In this document: piece after piece, positions 4,085-21,571 of the stretch | Layout of the letters: every line of letters begins with the position of its first letter | How positions within the stretch are numbered: position 1 is the first letter of the stretch | Source: Solirubrobacteraceae bacterium | Lineage (GTDB): Bacteria; Actinomycetota; Thermoleophilia; Solirubrobacterales; Solirubrobacteraceae | Assembly: GCA_036501315.1 (NCBI GenBank) | Contig: DASYAM010000010.1 | Span: forward strand, 11,543 to 35,542 | Direction of reading: 5' to 3' | DNA length: 24,000 bases | Position numbers and translations under genes: made by a program | The notes under the pieces: model-generated | What the model was told of the DNA's origin: nothing | Databases searched by the model: none | The model's input: the letters and a program-made list of their open reading frames with translations, nothing else

Positions 4085-4259
4085 CTTCGCTCCTCCTCCT
4101 TTGTCGCAGATATCTCCCAGTCTTCCCAAGCCGGGTAAAAAGTCAACAGGTTGGCACGATCCCTTTTACAAAACAAATGCAAACTGCGACTTAATCGCCG
4201 TCGACGATCGGCCGGCGCCAGCACTCTGACTCGGCGAAACCGTCAAACGACAATCAATC

Positions 4260-6067: not shown

Positions 6068-6131
6068 CCCATCCCTGCGCAATCCCCACAAGCGAAGGCT
6101 CCGAGCCGTACGAGGCATCGCGGGAGCATAT

Positions 6132-6668
6132 GTGCTCGATCCGCCCAGTCCGCGTCGAGCTCGTGAACGCGGCTGCGCGTCCGCTATCTCGTCGCGAGTA
6201 GCGCGAACCTGCGCGAGCGGATCTTCAACGCCCGCGGGGCCTCCAGGTGTTGTCGTGTACAACGCTGCCTTACCAGATCCAGGCCAGATCCTCGACTCTA
6301 CCGTCGAGCGGCTCCGAACCGCCCACGACGTCGACGTCCTCGGCGCCGTCGTCGCGGCACAGGTAGCCGCACCCGTCATGCGGGCAGCCGGCAGCGGCAC
6401 CCTGCTGGTCACCAGCGGAGGCTTCGCCGACAATCCAGTGCCTGCATTGGCGAGCCTCTCGATCGGGAAGGCCGCCCTGCGCTCAGCGCAAACGCTGATC
6501 GCCGCCAGCGTCCGAGAGGACGGCATCCACGCCGCGACCATCACGATCGCCGGCGCCGTCAAGCCGGGAACGGACTTCGATCCCGACAACATCGCCGAGC
6601 TTTTCTGGACCGCCCACACCGACTCGAAGGATGCCTGGCAGACTGAGTATCGGTTCACAGGCGCATAA
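6132..6668 (+). pseudogene. SDR-family oxidoreductase remnant: C-terminal two-thirds only, no Rossmann N-terminus
   Basis: From about nt 6246 the product reads like an atypical SDR: VVVYNAA (NNAG position), GTLLVTSGG, LSIGKAALRS, GIHAATITIAGAV, FDPDNIAELFW. The first about 38 codons are Arg/Ser/Pro-rich. I found no TGxxxGxG-like Gly-rich beta-alpha-beta in any plus frame upstream; that space is occupied by the tandem repeats. Confidence 0.45.
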
Positions 6669-6673
6669 GCGAA

Positions 6674-8059
6674 GTGCCAGCACCGACGCGCGTGCCGACG
6701 ATCCGCTCAGTGGCTACACCGCGTGAGAAGCAGTTGACCCTGCTCGCAGCCGTGCTTGGTACGAGCGTGGTGTTCCTCGACGCGACCGTAACCAGTGTCG
6801 CGTTGCCGGCGATTCGAGGCGACCTGGGTGGCGGTCTGGCGGGCCAGCAGTGGGTGACGAACGCGTACCTGCTGACGCTGGGGTCGCTGTTGTTGATGCG
6901 CCTGATCTTCCTGCTCAATGCGCCGCTCGTGCTCGTGACGGTGACGCTGATTGCTCGTGGCGTGCCGGGTGGCGCGAGCGCTGGCAGTGGCGGGCGTCTG
7001 GACTTTCTCGGGGCCTTCTTGGCGGCGGTCGCGCTCTCGGGTTCGGTGTTCGCCGTGACCGAGGAGCCGGCGCGCGGATGGAGCACCCTGGTGATCGGCT
7101 CGCTCGCGGTAGGGGTTCTGGGAGCGATCGCGTTTATTGTGCGCGAGGCACGAGCCCGAGGCCCGATGCTCCCGTTGAGCCTGTTTCGCGAGCGCAATTT
7201 CACGATCGGAAACGTAGCGACATTGACTGCCTACCTTGGGCTAGGGGGTGTGATCTTTCTACTGCCTGTGTTTCTGCAGGAGGTCAGCGACTACAGTCCC
7301 ATCCAGGCAGGGCTTGCCCTGCTGCCGGTCACCTCACTGATGATCGTGCTCTCCCGCCGCTTCGGCGCGCTCGCCGACCGCATTGGGTCGCGGGTGCCGA
7401 TAAGCCTCGGGGCGCTGATTGCTGGATTCGGCCTCTTGCTCTTGGCGCGTGTCGATCAGCGCGCTGATTACCTCAGCGAGGTTCTGCCGGGGCTGCTCGT
7501 GTTCGGGTTGGGGCTCGCGATGCTTGTCGCGCCGTTGACCGCCACGGTCCTTGGGGCAGTGGAGGAGGATCACGCAGGTGTCGCCGCCGCGGTGAATACG
7601 ACGCTCTCACGCGTCGCGCAGCTTTTCGCGGTCGCTGTGCTGGGAGCAGTCGTCTCTCTTGCGTTTGCCACTCGGGTCGACGCGACGCTACGACGGTCCA
7701 CGATCGATCCCGCCGGTCGCTCGGCGATCAGCCGCGCCAAGCGACAGCCCCTCGGTCCGGCGAGCTTGGTGGGAGTACGCTCCGGCGAGCGCCTTCTTCT
7801 GAGGGCGGCCTTCGACGATGCGGCGGTGCACGCCTTCCGCGTTGCGGACGCAATCGCGGCCGTACTCGTAGCGAGCGGCGGTCTCATTGCATTCGTCGGG
7901 ATCCGCAATCCCCGGCGCTCCGTGGCCGCCGAGCTATGTCCGGCCGGGGCGCTCTGCGGAGCTAGTCAAGAACTCGTCAATGCTCGCGAGGATCGATCCT
8001 CGGACCGGGGTTTCGTGAACCACGCGGTCGAAATTCCATCACCGAGGGTGGCCCCGTGA
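6674..8059 (+). CDS. MFS transporter, DHA2 (EmrB/QacA-like) family, with an apparent internal in-frame deletion
   Basis: Track ORF, GTG start. DHA2 blocks: FLDATVTSVALPAIRGDLGG...QWVTNAYLLTLG, RLIFLLNAP, LSLFRERNFTIGNVATLTAYLGLGGVIFLLPVFLQEV, LMIVLSRRFGALADRIG. The segment normally lying between TM2 and the WRxIFxINxP block is missing (see finding). Confidence 0.8.
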   Translation: MPAPTRVPTIRSVATPREKQLTLLAAVLGTSVVFLDATVTSVALPAIRGDLGGGLAGQQWVTNAYLLTLGSLLLMRLIFLLNAPLVLVTVTLIARGVPGGASAGSGGRLDFLGAFLAAVALSGSVFAVTEEPARGWSTLVIGSLAVGVLGAIAFIVREARARGPMLPLSLFRERNFTIGNVATLTAYLGLGGVIFLLPVFLQEVSDYSPIQAGLALLPVTSLMIVLSRRFGALADRIGSRVPISLGALIAGFGLLLLARVDQRADYLSEVLPGLLVFGLGLAMLVAPLTATVLGAVEEDHAGVAAAVNTTLSRVAQLFAVAVLGAVVSLAFATRVDATLRRSTIDPAGRSAISRAKRQPLGPASLVGVRSGERLLLRAAFDDAAVHAFRVADAIAAVLVASGGLIAFVGIRNPRRSVAAELCPAGALCGASQELVNAREDRSSDRGFVNHAVEIPSPRVAP

Positions 8060-8179
8060 GCGCGCCGCAGACTGTCATCTGGACCGCGCGTGTGTGCGGT
8101 CTTGCTCACACGCAAACGTCCAGTGGTACGCAGGTGGGCAAGGCCTATGAGTGCACCGCGACGTTGTCGGCGCGTAGCA

Positions 8180-8779
8180 TCACCAGCCGCCACTTGAACC
8201 TACCGCCAGTCCGCGGAAACCGCCAGTGCGGATATGACCAAGGTAGTATCGCTGCGAGGCGAAGTACTTTCGTGTGCCGCTGACTTCGTCGTTTGCGAGC
8301 ACCCCAACCCGTAGGTAGACCGCCGGTGTGGCCGATAGCAGCGCCTCAAGCGCGATCAATTCCTCGGCGTCGGGATCAATCTTGGCGACAGCGAGAAGGC
8401 GCGGGCTTGCGTCTCTCCACAAATGCGGACGCATGTCGATACGTATCACGCGGCTTACCTTCGGTCGCAATCGCATTACCCCGTCCGTCGCGGGATAAAG
8501 TTTGAGGATAGAGAAGGTCTTTGTCGCGGGCGCCTCTGCGTAGGAAATCAATTCGTTCCCCAGGTGCAGCGAGACAGAAAACGCTAGATCGACGGCGCCC
8601 CGTCTGCCGCGATTCAGAACCTTGAAGCGGTAGACGGCTTCGCCCTCGTGGGTCAGGCGGCTGATCGCCTCTCCGAACTCGAGCCGTGGCACCGCGAAAC
8701 GTAGCTGGATCCACCAAACGGCAAGGGCCACGATAAACGCGAGCGCCGCACCCAGGAGTAGGCCTCCCCAATCCATCAC
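8180..8779 (-). CDS. Hypothetical protein: N-terminal TM anchor plus a soluble, probably beta-rich domain
   Basis: Track ORF, 199 aa. GTG 8779 or ATG 8776 could be the start; no clear SD. One hydrophobic helix (LLLGAALAFIVALAVWWIQL). I recognise no family. GC is lower than the flanks (32/60 in 8461-8520). Confidence 0.55.
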   Translation of the reverse strand: MMDWGGLLLGAALAFIVALAVWWIQLRFAVPRLEFGEAISRLTHEGEAVYRFKVLNRGRRGAVDLAFSVSLHLGNELISYAEAPATKTFSILKLYPATDGVMRLRPKVSRVIRIDMRPHLWRDASPRLLAVAKIDPDAEELIALEALLSATPAVYLRVGVLANDEVSGTRKYFASQRYYLGHIRTGGFRGLAVGSSGGW

Positions 8780-8974
8780 GCCAGGTTACGCCAAATGGGT
8801 GCGTCGCACACTCGGCGATGGACGGCAAGTTGGGGCGCCCTCAGGATGTCCCTACGCCCGTTCTCAACGCCCAAGGCCGAGGAGCAGCGGCAGCGGCGGA
8901 AATCACTCAAGGGGCCTCGCACTGTATGCTCCACTATCCGAATTATCAATACTAGGCGATTTTGGGAGGCGAAA

Positions 8975-9280
8975 ATGGAGGGTAACACGGGGCTCGCAGA
9001 TAGCCACGGCTGGTTTCATCATCGTGAGCGAGATGGTGAGCATGACTTTGGTCTAGCAACTTTGCTTGAGCGGCTCAAGCGAGAACTTACCCAAGCGGCA
9101 ACTCATGACCGAGCCTCAGGTGGGACACAGCTAAAAGTCAAGGAATGCACCGTCGAACTTGGTCTTACCTGGACACTTGAGGGTGATGGGGACGTAAAAT
9201 TCTGGGTTCTCGATTTCACCGGCAAGGCTACTCGCGAGAACGCTCAGACGATCAAGGTAACGCTTGAGCCGGCAGCCTAG
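8975..9280 (+). CDS. Small (101 aa) trypco2-like protein (trypsin-co-occurring domain 2 type)
   Basis: Inner ATG of track ORF 8795..9280, with GGGAGG 7 nt upstream. The segment LATLLERLKRELTQAA...QLKVKECTVELGLTWTLEGDGDVKFWVLDFTGKATRENAQTIKVTLEP fits my recollection of the trypco2 pattern. That pattern is an N-terminal helix, then a strand-rich core ending FWV(L/V)(E/D)...G, then a basic or polar stretch and (I/V)x(L/V)TLxP. GC is about 48% (29/60 in both 8941-9000 and 9121-9180). Confidence 0.55.
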   Translation: MEGNTGLADSHGWFHHRERDGEHDFGLATLLERLKRELTQAATHDRASGGTQLKVKECTVELGLTWTLEGDGDVKFWVLDFTGKATRENAQTIKVTLEPAA

Positions 9281-9842
9281 AGATCGAACAGCTACCGAGC
9301 AGCCAGCGCAGCAGCACCAGCACCAGCACGATCGAGCGCCCGGTCATCCTTGTGTGAGCACGCGAGTCACCCTCAACGTTCCGCAACAGGATGTCGCAGT
9401 CGAAACCCGGTGGGTCTACCCACCTGTCGATGCGCTGCCAGAGCTCGCAACTGGTCCCTACCGGGCGACCCAGCATGACGCTTGGGATTGCCCCCAACTC
9501 GGGACACCCTTGATAGCCGGTCACAGCGGCGACCAGATGGGAGATCCCGAACCATGCCGGAACAAGCGATGCGGGCCACAACGCGATCGCTCCCGGCAAC
9601 CGGCGCGTACCCAACGCACCAGCAAAGACGAGGAACACAAGCCCAGCCATCGCACGAGAACGTCGAGCGGCACGAGCCATCGGAGCCTGCGACTCCACTA
9701 CGCCGCCGTCTTCCGAGCAACATCCGCCGCTAAGCAGGCCGCCCTCGGTCGCGGGGCGCGCGCCCGCGCATCCGCATGGATCGACAGCGCAGCTTGCACC
9801 ATCAGGGGCTGTCTCTGGGCGATTGGGTGGCGTTTCGGACAT
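9252..9842 (-). CDS. Cys-rich membrane protein (possible DUF2892/YgaP-like GxCP transmembrane module)
   Basis: Track ORF, 196 aa; AAGGGA RBS 7 nt upstream of ATG 9842. The N-terminal tail has CAVDPCGCAG and GGCCSEDGG. Two hydrophobic helices end in AAVTGYQGCPELGAIPS. A third helix (SIVLVLVLLRWLLGS) sits near the C-terminus. The 3' end overlaps the convergent trypco2-like gene by 29 nt. Confidence 0.55.
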   Translation of the reverse strand: MSETPPNRPETAPDGASCAVDPCGCAGARPATEGGLLSGGCCSEDGGVVESQAPMARAARRSRAMAGLVFLVFAGALGTRRLPGAIALWPASLVPAWFGISHLVAAVTGYQGCPELGAIPSVMLGRPVGTSCELWQRIDRWVDPPGFDCDILLRNVEGDSRAHTRMTGRSIVLVLVLLRWLLGSCSISRLPAQALP

Positions 9843-9862
9843 GCGTATTCCCTTTCATCGTT

Positions 9863-9896
9863 GTGATCACGATAAGGTCTACAACTTCAAGTAGGC
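9863..9896. promoter_or_regulatory. Candidate MerR operator region in the 63-bp divergent spacer
   Basis: Perfect 8-bp palindrome GTGATCAC (9863-9870), plus the dyad GTCTAC-N8-GTAGGC (9877-9896; CTAC-N8-GTAG is perfect). On the minus strand the dyad is bracketed by TTAAAG and TATCGT hexamers about 20-21 bp apart. This resembles the long-spacer MerR/CueR promoter layout. Confidence 0.35.
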
Positions 9897-9905
9897 TTTA
9901 AGTCA

Positions 9906-10343
9906 ATGCCGACACGCAACGACAACCTGACAATCGGAGAAGTCGCCCGTCAGGCGGGAGTGCCGGCCTCAACGCTTCGCTACTGGGAGAGCGCGGGACT
10001 GTTGACGGCGCCAGGGCGTGTCAGCGGTAAGCGCCGCTACGACCCGCAGACCCTCCGACAGATATCGCTGATCGTCTTGATCAAGCGCGCCGGATTCACG
10101 CTGGCCGAGACGCGCATCGTTCTCTCCGGCCTCTCCGACAGGACACCACCACCTGATATCTGGCGCAAGCTGGCCAAACGCAAGCTACCCGAGATCAAGC
10201 AAACGCTTGCCGAGGCTAGAGCAATGAAGAAGATCCTCGAAGAGGGCCTTCGCTGCGACTGTCTGACACTTGATGACTGCCTACGTCAAGGCGGGTCGCG
10301 GACCGCAGCGCACAGGCCTGTATCGATGTCGGCACAGAAGTAA
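9906..10343 (+). CDS. MerR-family transcriptional regulator, SoxR-like C-terminal Cys motif
   Basis: Track ORF, 145 aa. N-terminal MerR HTH: LTIGEVARQAGVPASTLRYWESAGLL...GKRRY. A coiled-coil dimerisation helix follows, then RCDCLTLDDC (C117, C119, C125). Confidence 0.9.
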   Translation: MPTRNDNLTIGEVARQAGVPASTLRYWESAGLLTAPGRVSGKRRYDPQTLRQISLIVLIKRAGFTLAETRIVLSGLSDRTPPPDIWRKLAKRKLPEIKQTLAEARAMKKILEEGLRCDCLTLDDCLRQGGSRTAAHRPVSMSAQK

Positions 10344-10619
10344 CCAACCTTCACGCAGCTCCCCGCCGGCCGCTCGGGACGGAACGCCACGATCACGCGA
10401 CCCATCTTGGATGGCCTCCTCGATTTGGCCTCGCAGTCGGCCAGCGAGATTGCGGCTGATCACGTCGATGATTGCCTTGCGGCCATCGCAGAGCTGCCCG
10501 TCCTCGACTCCATACCACTGCGCATCGGGCGCCAGCGCTTCACCCAAGACCTCCGGGCCACCTTCGATCATGGCCTCCCCCGCCCGGCGCACGACCTCGA
10601 TCTCGGGACTCTCGCCCAT
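10281..10619 (-). CDS. NTF2/SnoaL-like small protein, 3' part possibly frameshifted
   Basis: Inner ATG 10619 of track ORF 10281..10904(-). The product MGESPEIEVVRRAGEAMIEGGPEVLGEALAPDAQWYGVEDGQLCDGRKAIIDVISRNLAGRLRGQIEEAIQDGSR is SnoaL-like. Upstream codons of the track ORF run through the tRNA gene and are rejected. Downstream of about 10400 a different frame looks more coding (see finding). Confidence 0.5.
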   Translation of the reverse strand: MGESPEIEVVRRAGEAMIEGGPEVLGEALAPDAQWYGVEDGQLCDGRKAIIDVISRNLAGRLRGQIEEAIQDGSRDRGVPSRAAGGELREGWLLLCRHRYRPVRCGPRPALT

Positions 10620-10809
10620 AACCGTGATTGTCGCGCATCCACTCGCCGGAGGCTGCGGTCCCTTTGCGGTCCGTTTTGGCTCTCCCTGGCGGTCCGTTTG
10701 AGATCTCCAGCCCAACGAACAGCCGCGATCACGAGCGGATTCCGTCCCGCGAGGCCCAGCGTTTTCGGGGGTTTCGCCCGTTCGCTGGTCTCCGCGGTTC
10801 ACTAACCAA

Positions 10810-10883
10810 TCGGGGCGCCCGGATTCGAACCGGGGACCTCGCCGACCCGAACGGCGCGCGCTACCAGGCTGCGCCACGCCCCG
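10810..10883 (-). tRNA. tRNA-Pro (anticodon CGG), 74 nt, CCA not encoded
   Basis: Folded by hand from CGGGGCGTGGCGCAGCCTGGTAGCGCGCGCCGTTCGGGTCGGCGAGGTCCCCGGTTCGAATCCGGGCGCCCCGA. It has a 7-bp acceptor stem (CGGGGCG/CGCCCCG) and a 4-bp D stem (GCGC/GCGC) with the GG loop. The 5-bp anticodon stem (CGCCG/CGGCG) carries loop TTCGGGT, giving anticodon CGG. The T arm is CCCGG-TTCGAAT-CCGGG and the discriminator is A. Confidence 0.95.
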
Positions 10884-10931
10884 ACGCAGAGACCAGTATC
10901 CCACACCGCCCGCTATCGTCGCCCGACGCCC

Positions 10932-15574: not shown

Positions 15575-15580
15575 CGACGG

Positions 15581-16897: not shown

Positions 16898-16985
16898 GCT
16901 CGATTGATTTTACGGGCACGTGCCCCGGAATAACCTGCCACGGCTTCTCGCGCCGCCCTACGCGCGCACGAGCGACCGCTGGACG

Positions 16986-18302
16986 ATGCGGCTTCCAGGC
17001 CGCAGAACGCGGCTTCTGAGCCGGACGACATGGCTGCTGGGCTCGAGGATGTGGCGCTTGTGCCTGTCTGCGCTCCTCGTCTGCGTCTGCTGCGCCGATG
17101 TGGGCGCGCCCGCGACCGCAAGCGCCGCGGGAGGGCTCACCGCGCTGCAGGCGGACCTCAGCCACCAGCTCACGCTCGCCGGCCCGGCTAACGGCGCCTA
17201 CGTGTATGACCTGACAGCACACCAGGCGCTGTTCTCCGAGCGCGCCACGGCGATGCGCCCGCCGGCGTCGGTGGAGAAGCTATACACGGCGACGACCGCG
17301 CTCGAGCGGATGGGCGCGACGGCGCGCCTGCCGACGACGGTGCTCGGCGCCGGGCAGCTGCTACCGGGGGGTGTGTGGGAAGGCAACCTGTATCTGCGCG
17401 GTGGCGGCGACCCGACGTTCGGGTCGGCGTCGTTCATCGAACATCATTACGGTGGTATCGGCACGAGCGTCGCCGGGCTCGCGTCGCAGCTCGTGCAGGT
17501 TGCCGGCATCCATCACATCACCGGGTCAGTGTATGGCGATGAAGGCTGGTTCGACTCGCTGCGTGGCGAGCCCTCGTCGAACTTCGGGCTCGACCCGTTC
17601 CTCGAAGGCACGCTCTCGGGGCTCGCGTTCAACCGCGGCGCGAGCGGATCCGAACGCGGCCCGCACGGGCCGGCCGCGTATGCGGCGCGCGAGCTGTGGG
17701 CGGCGTTGAAGGGCGACGGCGTCTCGATCCACGACGCGCCCGGCGCCGCGCCGACGCCGGCCGGAGCGCTGCAGCTCGCGCAGGTGCAGTCGCCGACGGT
17801 GACGCAGCTGCTCGGGCTGATGCTGCCGCCGTCGGACAACTTCTTTGCGGAGACGCTGGTGAAGGACCTCGGCGCGTTGTACGGCGGCGCCGGCACGACC
17901 GCGGCGGGAGCGTCAGTCGTGAGCGCGACGATCGCTTCGGTGCTCGGCATCCACCCGCACGTGGTCGACGGGTCGGGGTTGTCGGAAGCGGACCGGACCT
18001 CGCCCTACCAGGTCGCCGATCTGCTGGTGGAGCTGGCCACAACCCCGCTCGGCCCGGTGCTGCGGGGCAACCTCGCGATCGCCGGGCACACCGGCACGCT
18101 TGCCACGCGTATGCGCAACACGGGCGCGTCGGGGCGCTGTCAGGGCAAGACCGGAACGCTGACAGGCGTGTCGAACCTCGTCGGGTACTGCAACGCGGCG
18201 GACGGCCATACGCTTGCGTTTGCGATCTTCACCGACGGCATTGCCACGGAGACCGCGCATACGTTCCAGGACCACATGACGATCACGATCGCGGACTACT
18301 GA
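16986..18302 (+). CDS. dacB: D-alanyl-D-alanine carboxypeptidase/endopeptidase (PBP4, peptidase S13)
   Basis: Track ORF 16920..18302. SVEK (SxxK) lies in PPASVEKLYTATTAL, SDN in LPPSDNFFAETL, and KTG in GKTGTLTGVSNLVGY. The start is uncertain. ATG 16986 (MRLPGRR...) or ATG 17043 (MWRLCLSALLV..., signal-like) is preferred over GTG 16920, which sits inside a palindrome 22 nt from the divergent patatin start. Confidence 0.9.
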   Translation: MRLPGRRTRLLSRTTWLLGSRMWRLCLSALLVCVCCADVGAPATASAAGGLTALQADLSHQLTLAGPANGAYVYDLTAHQALFSERATAMRPPASVEKLYTATTALERMGATARLPTTVLGAGQLLPGGVWEGNLYLRGGGDPTFGSASFIEHHYGGIGTSVAGLASQLVQVAGIHHITGSVYGDEGWFDSLRGEPSSNFGLDPFLEGTLSGLAFNRGASGSERGPHGPAAYAARELWAALKGDGVSIHDAPGAAPTPAGALQLAQVQSPTVTQLLGLMLPPSDNFFAETLVKDLGALYGGAGTTAAGASVVSATIASVLGIHPHVVDGSGLSEADRTSPYQVADLLVELATTPLGPVLRGNLAIAGHTGTLATRMRNTGASGRCQGKTGTLTGVSNLVGYCNAADGHTLAFAIFTDGIATETAHTFQDHMTITIADY

Positions 18303-18307
18303 GCAGT

Positions 18308-18328
18308 AACGCTTGCTCGGGAAGCGTT
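18308..18328 (+). terminator. Small hairpin just after the dacB stop
   Basis: AACGCTT - GCTCGGG - AAGCGTT gives a 7-bp stem and 7-nt loop, starting 6 nt after TGA 18300-18302. No U tract follows. Confidence 0.25.
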
Positions 18329-18424
18329 CGAGCTCGCGCGCTGTGCCGCGACCTGCACGGCTTGAGTCGGCATCGACGAGCAGTGGACCAGCGCTAGTGT
18401 TCTACTCTCATCCAAACGGTGAAT

Positions 18425-18547
18425 ATGACTGAACTTCCGTTCTGGAACTGGCTCAGCGCGGAGACCGTGACGTCCAAAGCACGCGTATGCAGATTTTGCG
18501 GCTACCGATTCGCGCCGCAGCTGCAACCCGAGGAGCTCAGCGCGTAA
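18425..18547 (+). CDS. Candidate 40-codon small ORF (MTELPFWNWLSAETVTSKARVCRFCGYRFAPQLQPEELSA)
   Basis: Below the ORF-track size cut-off; found by reading the sequence. ATG 18425 to TAA 18545-18547. Third-position GC is 30/40 by my count, which is coding-like for this genome. The RBS is weak. It contains one CxxC. Confidence 0.3.
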   Translation: MTELPFWNWLSAETVTSKARVCRFCGYRFAPQLQPEELSA

Positions 18548-18561
18548 CACTCCGATGAGGT

Positions 18562-18683
18562 CAGCGGGGCCGCATGCGGCCCCGCTGCGGTTCCGCACAT
18601 GTGCGGAACCGCCGTCGGCGCATGCGCCGACGGTATGACGAGCCGCATGCGGCTCGTCACGGGGTCGCGCATGCGCGACCCCG
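18562..18683. repeat. Array of five abutting perfect palindromes sharing a CGCATGCG core
   Basis: Read directly. The five are 18562-18587 (26 nt), 18588-18611 (24), 18612-18633 (22), 18636-18659 (24) and 18660-18683 (24). The array lies between the small-ORF/dacB unit (+) and ligA (-). Confidence 0.9.
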
Positions 18684-18692
18684 AACAGCATC

Positions 18693-21571
<2,879 letters not shown>

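Follow-up and report, generated by a model that had tools for sequence, protein, structure and literature searches.

The DNA analysed here is a 24,000-nt stretch (the window) of contig DASYAM010000010.1, from the genome assembly GCA_036501315.1 of a Solirubrobacteraceae bacterium. In the gap between two convergent genes, ligA and an S13-family carboxypeptidase gene, the window carries five abutting perfect palindromes (18562-18683). With a probability of roughly 0.7, we read these palindromes as one copy of a dispersed, polar and composite hairpin-array repeat family of Solirubrobacterales. The family resembles repetitive extragenic palindromes (REPs) and bacterial interspersed mosaic elements (BIMEs) or miniature inverted-repeat transposable elements (MITEs), and its arms would be symmetrised by templated correction. 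The features of the locus are listed below, with U1 to U7 standing for the unit positions of the family.

15575-15580: site b, empty in the window; 6 nt separating the aminotransferase gene from the patatin gene convergent with it
16920-18302, plus strand: S13-family D-Ala-D-Ala carboxypeptidase gene (Pfam Peptidase_S13, E = 9e-66); synteny kept in 50 loci
18303-18549: lineage-specific spacer holding a doubtful 42-codon open reading frame (ORF); 1.84 Mb of related DNA gave no match to it by blastn or tblastn
18550-18561, minus strand: other edge of the array, GACCTCATCGGA, from comparison with the relatives L001 and L042; the profile alignment extends to 18551
18562-18587: hairpin unit CAGCGGGGCCGCATGCGGCCCCGCTG, perfect palindrome with 13-nt arms; family position U6, GGCAGGGCC type (palindrome scans and profile alignment)
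18587-18612: hairpin unit GCGGTTCCGCACATGTGCGGAACCGC, 13-nt arms; family position U5 (palindrome scans and profile alignment)
18612-18633: hairpin unit CCGTCGGCGCATGCGCCGACGG, 11-nt arms; family position U4, CCGnnCGGCG type (palindrome scans and family alignment)
18634-18635: A/T spacer TA between array units 3 and 4; it marks the U3/U4 junction in other copies
18636-18659: hairpin unit TGACGAGCCGCATGCGGCTCGTCA, 12-nt arms; family position U3, TGACGnGCC type (palindrome scans and family alignment)
18660-18683: hairpin unit CGGGGTCGCGCATGCGCGACCCCG, 12-nt arms; family position U2, CGGGGnCGCG type (palindrome scans and family alignment)
18684-18692, minus strand: polar edge motif GATGCTGTT, the family edge G-N-N-G-TT, between the ligA stop codon and U2
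18693-20741, minus strand: ligA, NAD-dependent DNA ligase of 682 aa (Pfam adenylation, OB, HhH and BRCT domains)

Five perfect palindromes form a hairpin array beside ligA

Two independent palindrome scans returned the five abutting perfect palindromes of 18562-18683 with the sequences written in an earlier, first-pass annotation of this DNA. Four of its unit coordinates stand, and the second unit runs from 18587 to 18612 instead of from 18588 to 18611. The window has five palindromes whose arms reach 10 nt or more, all at this one spot, compared with a mean of 0.11 in 100 dinucleotide-preserving shuffles of the 24-kb window. The centre is CGCATGCG in four units and CACATGTG in one, and U5 is the family position that usually bears the CACATGTG core. 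RNA folding gave five hairpins from either strand, as had been anticipated, at about -110 kcal/mol (z = -9.0 and -8.0), and DNA folding gave z = -10.4.

The array starts 14 nt past the TAA of the 42-codon ORF and ends 9 nt short of the ligA stop codon (18693-18695, minus strand), both distances agreeing with the earlier count. A promoter and terminator consensus scan of 17800-19200 found nothing, and the window array is without a U tract, as had also been remarked. Past U6, the letters GACCTC probably represent what remains of a truncated U7, namely its initial 6 nt (L001 and L042 have GACCTCGCCGCATGCGGCGAGGTC here), and the ATCGGA that follows them may be a degenerate copy of the terminal motif ATCAGC. 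Like arrays are found in long-read metagenome-assembled genome (MAG) chromosomes (MFD ...bin.c) as well as in independent short-read assemblies (SMAG k141, JGI), so an assembly artefact, which the first-pass annotation had considered, is excluded. The complete Solirubrobacterales chromosomes OY970062.1, OY970204.1 and OY970247.1 bear the arrays of L006, L009 and L030.

Arrays are inserted into minimal gaps between convergent genes

A LigA search of genome collections yielded 80 loci, about 50 of which come from Solirubrobacterales MAGs with a LigA 70-95% identical to that of the window. The synteny surE-ligA> <S13 patatin> <aminotransferase was observed in all of these ~50 loci. Exactly one array each, consisting of three to seven abutting 24-nt perfect palindromes with the same centres, was found in 16 of the 50, so the locus is not unique. 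The array lies either in the ligA/S13 gap (site a) or in the patatin/aminotransferase gap (site b), both of which are convergent, and none of the ~50 loci has arrays at the two sites together. Site b is filled by a five- to seven-unit array in L003, L004, L005, L009, L012 and L041 and by a three-unit array in L028, and the number of units varies among genomes with 91-95% identical LigA. At a third site, between rpmJ and its upstream gene, L162 (22-93) and L174 (557-628) have a three-unit array, whereas L032 and Conexibacter arvalis (L039) have none there. Within ~12 kb of one chromosomal neighbourhood, different lineages thus use three separate gaps, and the patchy presence of arrays across the tree indicates repeated gain and loss. 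An inversion of the S13-patatin segment was considered as the explanation for site a versus site b and was rejected, as gene order and orientation are unchanged.

In array-free relatives the convergent genes overlap or nearly touch, and the empty sites consist of stop codons that overlap or are spaced by 0-30 nt. At empty site a, the stop codons of ligA and the S13-peptidase gene overlap by 7 nt, as TCAGTAG or TCAGTAA (L016, L018, L019, L026, L035, L036, L038, L040 and L047, around position 8000-8046). Zero intergenic DNA at this site is an extreme compaction for convergent genes. Empty site b measures 3-13 nt in the relatives and 6 nt in the window. Since the stop codons overlap or nearly touch wherever the array is missing, the arrays are insertions into minimal spacers, and comparison of filled with empty loci places the window element where the stop codons of ligA and the S13-peptidase gene ancestrally overlapped by 7 nt.

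Filled site a has AGTAG on both sides of the element (..AAGTAG-element-TCAGTAG), compared with TCAGTAG at the empty site, and the site b flanks in L003 and L004 read CTRCAGAAGCT on one side and CTACAG on the other. No target-site duplication was seen at the third site or around the terminal inverted repeats of L009. Signs of turnover were also observed. L032 and L046 retain a decayed remnant of one unit, 32-36 nt long. Between the arrays of L003 (12487-12927) and L004 (10953-11145), 25% of the arm pairs differ, yet the fourfold-site divergence is 9-14%; L003 also bears a terminal segment of its own (..CATCAGCTTTTTATGAGACATGTG..) and, behind it, a half-unit corresponding to the final unit of L004. 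The L003 array looks like a copy replacement or a nested insertion beside the old half-unit.

Family members are dispersed and lie at gene 3' ends

Metagenomes were scanned for one pattern only, three CGCATGCG cores at 24-26 nt spacing, and the resulting sample is biased to arrays with three such cores. At least 95 true palindrome arrays were found among the 120 metagenome stretches listed, on contigs of 63-75% GC; those read among the other 25 stretches are ordinary direct tandem repeats, not palindromes. The contigs were assigned taxonomically by their GC content and by three overlaps with known loci. These three, the only ones of the 120 stretches to share sequence with the ligA neighbourhood, are L203, which is site a of a relative, and L162 and L174, which hold the third site. 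Arrays are known from more than 100 different genomic contexts and share one ordered architecture. These results bear out the REP/BIME-like dispersed palindromic element, one of several possibilities that the first-pass annotation had left side by side.

The 146 genes flanking the metagenome arrays matched 195 Pfam families of ordinary housekeeping function. Both neighbours could be called for 50 arrays, and the gene ends facing them were convergent (3'/3') in 37 (74%), tandem (3'/5') in 11 and divergent (5'/5') in two; other versions of the gene caller gave agreeing results. The gap between stop codon and array has a median of 12 nt, and both the GTT edge of the array, described below, and the opposite edge face gene 3' ends. 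Two metagenome contigs bear two arrays each, a few kb apart. The density is one array per 14-24 kb in the ligA loci, and two extra arrays were found in 588 kb around 95 trigger arrays. On viral contigs the triple-core pattern returned four stretches, all of them ordinary 24-nt direct tandem repeats, and a BLAST search of a plasmid collection gave no match.

A related palindrome was seen in L100, where GTAGGGGCGACGCATGCGTCGCCCCTAC, a GTAG/CTAC-tagged 28-nt perfect palindrome sharing the array core, occurs twice (1048-1075 and 4104-4180). One copy lies inside a HIT-domain ORF, and the other is trailed by two 24-nt direct copies of its right half. The idea that the two tagged palindromes flank a 3-kb REPtron was dropped, because the ORFs between them are acyl-CoA dehydrogenase and pyrroloquinoline quinone (PQQ)-propeller genes, with no REP-associated tyrosine transposase (RAYT) gene. 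The L100 repeat suggests that REP-like elements with a GCATGC apex are present in other soil bacteria as well.

Units share a conserved apex and stand in a fixed order

The anatomy of the family was examined in a pooled sample of 113 distinct arrays with 476 units, at three to eight units per array. The spacing of units from centre to centre is exactly 24 nt in 74% and otherwise 23-26 nt. The inner ten pairs are perfect in 97% of the 476 units, 357 of which are distinct 24-mers. The centre is YRCATGYR, in the form of CGCATGCG, CACATGTG, TGCATGCA or TACATGTA, with transitions only, and the two pairs flanking it are G/C. In the ligA-selected loci, a sample free of search-pattern bias, the loop is CATG in 76 of ~81 units, and the remaining five loops are one base off (CAAG, CTTG, CGTG, CACG), with stems that are still perfect. 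As asymmetric off-type loops keep perfect stems, the constraint is on the stem-loop and not on the duplex palindrome. One orthologous edge unit, GGCCATGCCG-loop-CGGCATGGCC, has the loop CAAG in L009 (11116-11139) and L041 (11276-11299) and CTTG in L003 (12665-12688); such inversion of a loop between identical arms is the 'flip-flop' expected if a hairpin is occasionally copied through.

The edges of the arrays differ from each other. GTT is present at 58 of ~220 array edges, compared with a background of 0.8% per position, and it stands on one side only in 56 arrays, which gives the array a polarity. The commonest edge hexamer is GCTGTT (13 cases), with GTTGTT (10), GTAGTT (9) and GCAGTT (8) behind it. 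The opposite edge tends to ..CC(A)ATCAGC, and an inward-pointing GCTGAT was found within 40 nt of 19 of 111 arrays, where ~5 were expected. In a few full copies (L009; partly L041, L030 and L006) there are A/T-rich terminal inverted repeats of ~30 nt, and those of L009 close six hairpins into one multibranch structure (-163 kcal/mol, z = -12). A U tract, taken as at least six T in 8 nt within 32 nt outward, accompanies no more than 5 of the 111 arrays.

When 16 arrays from different contexts were aligned, their units matched one by one, in the order GCTGATG-nn-GTT, U1..U7, CCCAATCAGC. The full element consists of GCTGATG-nn-GTT, up to seven or eight abutting 24-nt units, each with a 10-bp stem and a CATG loop, and ..CC-A-ATCAGC. 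A profile hidden Markov model was built only from nine metagenome arrays in unrelated contexts, and it matched the window with E = 3.8e-35, covering U2-U6 with 114.8 bits on the minus strand and 27.1 bits on the plus strand. A strand difference of at least 20 bits was seen in 75 of the 102 profile match regions in all the DNA examined. By this alignment, the window array is an ordered homologous copy with U2-U6 and a U7 stub. We are highly confident of its family membership and of its insertion.

The two arms of a unit change together

In the 16-array alignment, 40 of 54 consensus pairs are changed on both sides, with only five wobble cells, and all four Watson-Crick pair types occur at single columns. 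Non-Watson-Crick pairs make up 1.7% of ~4,750 stem pairs and sit mainly at the outermost positions; G:T accounts for 0.4%. In 11 tandem-context arrays, of which only one strand is expected in mRNA, none of 336 inner pairs is non-Watson-Crick, and hence there is no G:T. When orthologous arrays are set side by side, 0.10-0.38 of their arm pairs have changed on both arms, compared with a ligA fourfold-site divergence of 0.09-0.43. Both-arm changes stand to one-arm changes as ~12 : 1, and many of the differences are single pairs.

Paired substitution at about the neutral rate, with near-zero intermediates and no wobble, argues for templated correction rather than for slow compensatory selection on an RNA helix. 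Template switching at quasipalindromes is well established as a source of mutations (PMC7202029, PMC3820800), and we infer that it operates on the arms of the arrays; whether templated correction is the main reason for their perfection is in our judgement an even question. The first-pass annotation had suggested selection on structure plus a specific core, as opposed to simple duplication. This suggestion holds in substance, given the changes on both sides of 40 of 54 pairs and a core that varies by transitions only, and needs amending in that the near-neutral paired rate points to templated correction and not to classical selection alone.

Neighbouring genes and other features of the locus

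The ligA/S13 gap terminates a long co-directional run of genes, with ribosomal-protein operons, rpoA, rplQ, truA, surE and ligA. Other neighbours identified by Pfam are surE upstream of ligA, the patatin gene and the aminotransferase gene. The convergent setting described in the first-pass annotation is correct in that ligA has a convergent partner, which is the S13 carboxypeptidase gene (16920-18302) and not the short ORF. That ORF, listed as a candidate of 40 codons and counted as 42 codons in the reanalysis (18419-18547), is probably not a gene. Its GC content at third codon positions (GC3) is 0.72, compared with ~0.88 for real genes in the window, its UPF0547 match in Pfam is sub-threshold (21.6 bits, cutoff 29), and neither the ORF nor its 259-nt segment has a counterpart in any related locus. 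On the same three grounds, it was rejected as a partner protein of the array. The ORF includes a CxxC-like stretch, 'CRFCGYRF'. The spacer 18303-18549 around it is specific to the window genome, and the nearest relatives L001 and L042 have only ~40 nt there.

Other sequences were observed in the ligA/S13 gap of some relatives. L004 (8025-8325) and L030 (8203-8338) share a conserved stretch, GTTAG(C/T)ATG(T/C)AG(A/G)T..GGTTATCA..GCGGCGGCCCGC-TTCG-GCGGGTCG, which includes a UUCG-type hairpin and in L004 also a tRNA-like T-arm (GGTTCGATTCC); the stretch could represent a gene for a small RNA or what is left of a tRNA. In L008, L009, L011 and L012 (~8100-8450), a short conserved ORF resembles an XRE-type helix-turn-helix (..EAGISTSTLSRVERGLHQPSLPTLRKLA..) and is accompanied by a conserved hairpin; it is absent from the window. 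As a separate observation, L033 (757-798), from a 68% GC genome, has an odd polypurine/polypyrimidine hairpin whose 19-bp perfect stem is made of C/T versus A/G only (CTTCTTTCTCTCTTTCTCT-GGAG-AGAGAAAGAGAGAAAGAAG).

Elsewhere in the window, 6130-10930 has a GC content of 0.61-0.64, compared with ~0.67-0.69 in the rest, and is without the high-GC3 gene signature. It contains a truncated SDR fragment, an MFS transporter, a Trypco2-domain ORF and a MerR regulator, and ends at tRNA-Pro(CGG) (10809-10884, minus strand). This segment may be a variable region or an island beside the tRNA gene.

Discussion

Several known repeat families resemble the arrays in part. At the level of the single unit, the nearest match is the group 3 REP. 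In REP_Mb of a group 3 REPtron, arms of 10 nt enclose a 4-nt loop and a GTAG tag stands 2 nt away from the stem, and the REPs of this group, in Stenotrophomonas maltophilia and Marinomonas sp. MWYL1, are perfect palindromes (PMC8266576). Group 3 REPs and array units are both G+C-rich perfect palindromes with a 10-bp stem and a 4-nt loop, both are extragenic, dispersed and located at gene 3' ends, and the array edge, G-N-N-G followed by TT and the first stem (GTAGTT in 9 of 58 GTT edges), recalls the REP tag. The 24-nt units also fall within the 20-40 nt of G+C-rich hairpin palindromes called REPs. However, REPs have GTAG (or CGTC) at the foot of each unit, whereas internal array units are untagged and the array is tagged at one edge only, by a motif that is not a fixed GTAG. 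REPs conserve their foot and tag, whereas the arrays conserve their apex, YRCATGYR, and the arms within a genome are not copies of one master sequence, in line with the many distinct units. REPs typically exceed 100 copies per genome, and the arrays are apparently far fewer.

BIMEs of Enterobacteria and Pseudomonas, for which terminator, stabiliser and topology roles have been proposed, are like the arrays in forming hairpin clusters of variable number in extragenic 3' regions, with strain-variable presence (PMC2817692, PMC3116915). In contrast to the alternating REP orientation and conserved linkers of BIMEs, array units are self-complementary and abut in a 24-nt register, and they have a fixed order of unit types, U1-U7, which BIMEs lack. 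The BrickBuilt MITE of Porphyromonas gingivalis shares with the arrays a leader, spacer-less tandem units of ~23-24 nt in variable number, a tail and, in some arrays, small inverted-repeat ends, as well as an intergenic location, and its tens of copies per genome may have a parallel in the arrays (PMC4596501). Its units are direct repeats of one sequence, whereas array units are perfect palindromes with divergent arms, and no promoter activity is indicated for the arrays. Pneumococcal BOX elements, modular as boxA-boxB(n)-boxC, are a similar case. Integron attC sites (RYYYAAC ... GTTRRRY) differ from the arrays, in which the edge GTT is followed by C(C/G)GG and not by RRRY, and the neighbours of the arrays are conserved housekeeping genes in fixed synteny. 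An Rfam search of the window returned only a tRNA at gathering score, with best local matches of 17-23 bits against gathering scores of 40-80, and permissive E-values gave only weak hairpin-like matches, such as naRNA4 (17 bits, gathering score 59.5). No earlier description of the array family was found in the literature on its core, on Solirubrobacter and Conexibacter repeats, or on tandem perfect palindromes.

The arrays might instead be a host-evolved bidirectional terminator or mRNA-stabiliser stack, selected in place at convergent gene ends and neither mobile nor exchanged. A G+C-rich dyad between convergent genes is indeed what Rho-independent bidirectional terminators have in common with the arrays. 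The convergent position of 74% of the resolved arrays at a median of 12 nt from stop codons, the place of site a at the close of the run from ribosomal-protein genes to ligA, the A and T tracts that bracket a few full copies such as L009 and form a closing stem (AAAAAGCUGAU/AUCAGCUUUUU), and the pairing kept over deep divergence all agree with this explanation. We nevertheless consider it improbable. Unit order and polar termini are common to unrelated loci, which marks the arrays as homologous copies, not locus-specific convergent inventions, and close relatives manage without any spacer, their stop codons overlapping. Arrays are present in some lineages and missing in others, and there are remnants and one replaced copy. 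Paired changes at a near-neutral rate, and the lack of G:U even where only one strand is expected in mRNA, are both unlike ordinary RNA-helix evolution. The U tract that makes a hairpin an intrinsic terminator is missing in 106 of 111 arrays, and a stack of five to seven hairpins is superfluous for termination. A related possibility is a multi-copy, multi-hairpin non-coding RNA gene, or an RNA-protein platform with loops read by an RNA-binding protein. In its favour are a very stable fold (z = -9 to -12), conservation of loop and closing pairs, and an order of units that is like a defined RNA architecture; yet no Rfam family reached its gathering score, with weak chance-level matches only, no promoter-like site was found in the scanned region, the array is strand-symmetric unit by unit with three to eight units, and wobble pairs are absent. 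We give this explanation very little weight.

Two further explanations concern double-stranded or extruded DNA. The first-pass annotation had included an array of sites for a dimeric protein, and an operator-like array with a dsDNA-binding dimer reading CGCATGCG and loading cooperatively every 24 bp would fit the strict 24-bp register and the palindromic, nearly invariant 8-bp core. It is very unlikely, as a protein reading the core leaves the perfect palindromy of variable, uncontacted arm positions unexplained, and units with asymmetric loops retain perfect stems. Moreover, the sites lie at gene 3' ends and not at promoters, and the listed Pfam families of flanking genes include no regulator that accompanies the arrays. 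A cruciform or hairpin feature of the DNA, serving replication, recombination or topology, for example as a gyrase or nucleoid-protein site at convergent transcription, would go with the perfect Watson-Crick symmetry on both strands and with a location where positive supercoils accumulate. E. coli BIMEs bind gyrase and IHF (PMC2817692). The chance of such a role is likewise slim: stems of 10 bp are short for cruciform extrusion, the same sites are without the element in relatives, and GC skew across the window is uninformative, with no sign change and no origin or terminus signal. A restriction-site explanation (RCATGY or CATG) was also tried and rejected, as the depletion of CATG in the rest of the window is mild (53 observed, ~74 expected by base composition).

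We therefore favour the composite hairpin-array repeat family. That the family is dispersed, ordered and polar, that its members are insertions strongly associated with gene 3' ends, and that complementarity stays strict despite arm turnover are observed results, on which the following scheme would build. The array would be a REP/BIME- or MITE-like element, not autonomous, which spreads to other sites or passes between them by exchange. Its units would fold into hairpins in single-stranded nucleic acid, both DNA and RNA, and a change in one arm would rapidly be copied to the opposite arm by intrastrand template switching of the quasipalindrome type; arm-to-arm copying of this kind would leave the arms hypervariable yet perfect. 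Once transcribed, the stack, identical from both directions, could act as a two-way barrier at RNA 3' ends, as an exonuclease block, a termination aid or an insulator. In E. coli, REPs are combined 3' untranslated region terminators and stabilisers, which curb read-through and stabilise the upstream mRNA (bioRxiv 10.64898/2026.03.23.713779). For the arrays, a terminator or RNA-stabiliser role is plausible and consistent with their bias to 3' ends and convergent genes, and a two-way barrier is what we infer from it; that the arrays have a real terminator or stabiliser effect strikes us as doubtful. Spread driven by a transposase is possible, at somewhat less than an even chance.

Several observations weigh against the favoured reading. 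The missing U tract, in the window copy as in most arrays, makes canonical intrinsic termination unlikely. No match to E. coli RAYT (the tnpA_REP gene of REPtrons, HUH Y1), IS200 or IS608 TnpA was found by tblastn in 1.84 Mb of related DNA, and neither a transposase nor a recurring partner gene is among the 25 most frequent of the 195 flanking Pfam families. The densities given above suggest ~10 arrays per genome (rough range 1 to ~40), not the hundreds of classical REPs. Terminal inverted repeats are clear in a minority of copies only, and most short arrays have the asymmetric GTT edge alone. The AGTAG pair at site a resembles a target duplication, is only suggestive and cannot be generalised. 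At site b, copy replacement and not change in place accounts for some of the rapid divergence (L003 versus L004). The flanking genes were called by a crude GC3-based caller, so that their ends are approximate.

A more specific form of the idea, which we regard as speculative and rather unlikely, is a class of self-symmetrising hairpin elements distinct from REP/RAYT variants. In such elements the apex (YRCATGYR with a 10-bp stem) would be read by a putative hairpin-specific transposase, nuclease or RNA/ssDNA-binding factor, and the arms would drift at or above the neutral rate, each change being copied across, within an order of seven hairpins; the whole would be a natural system of palindrome upkeep by templating that spans the genome. 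The conserved apex and free arms reverse the classical REP layout and hint at a different recognition logic. The 476 units, with their ~4,750 stem pairs, are a clean natural data set on inverted-repeat perfection, in which near-zero mismatches and wobble together with roughly synonymous pair turnover make hairpin-templated correction testable against compensatory selection.

Solirubrobacterales are abundant soil Actinomycetota known almost wholly from MAGs, and the literature searched yielded no account of their repeat elements. The arrays provide a recognisable landmark of gene ends for annotation, for prediction of transcript ends and for strain typing by unit number, and they also generate false ORFs, as in the window. 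For the organisms themselves, they indicate that compact genomes with overlapping convergent stop codons acquire structured inserts of 70-190 bp.

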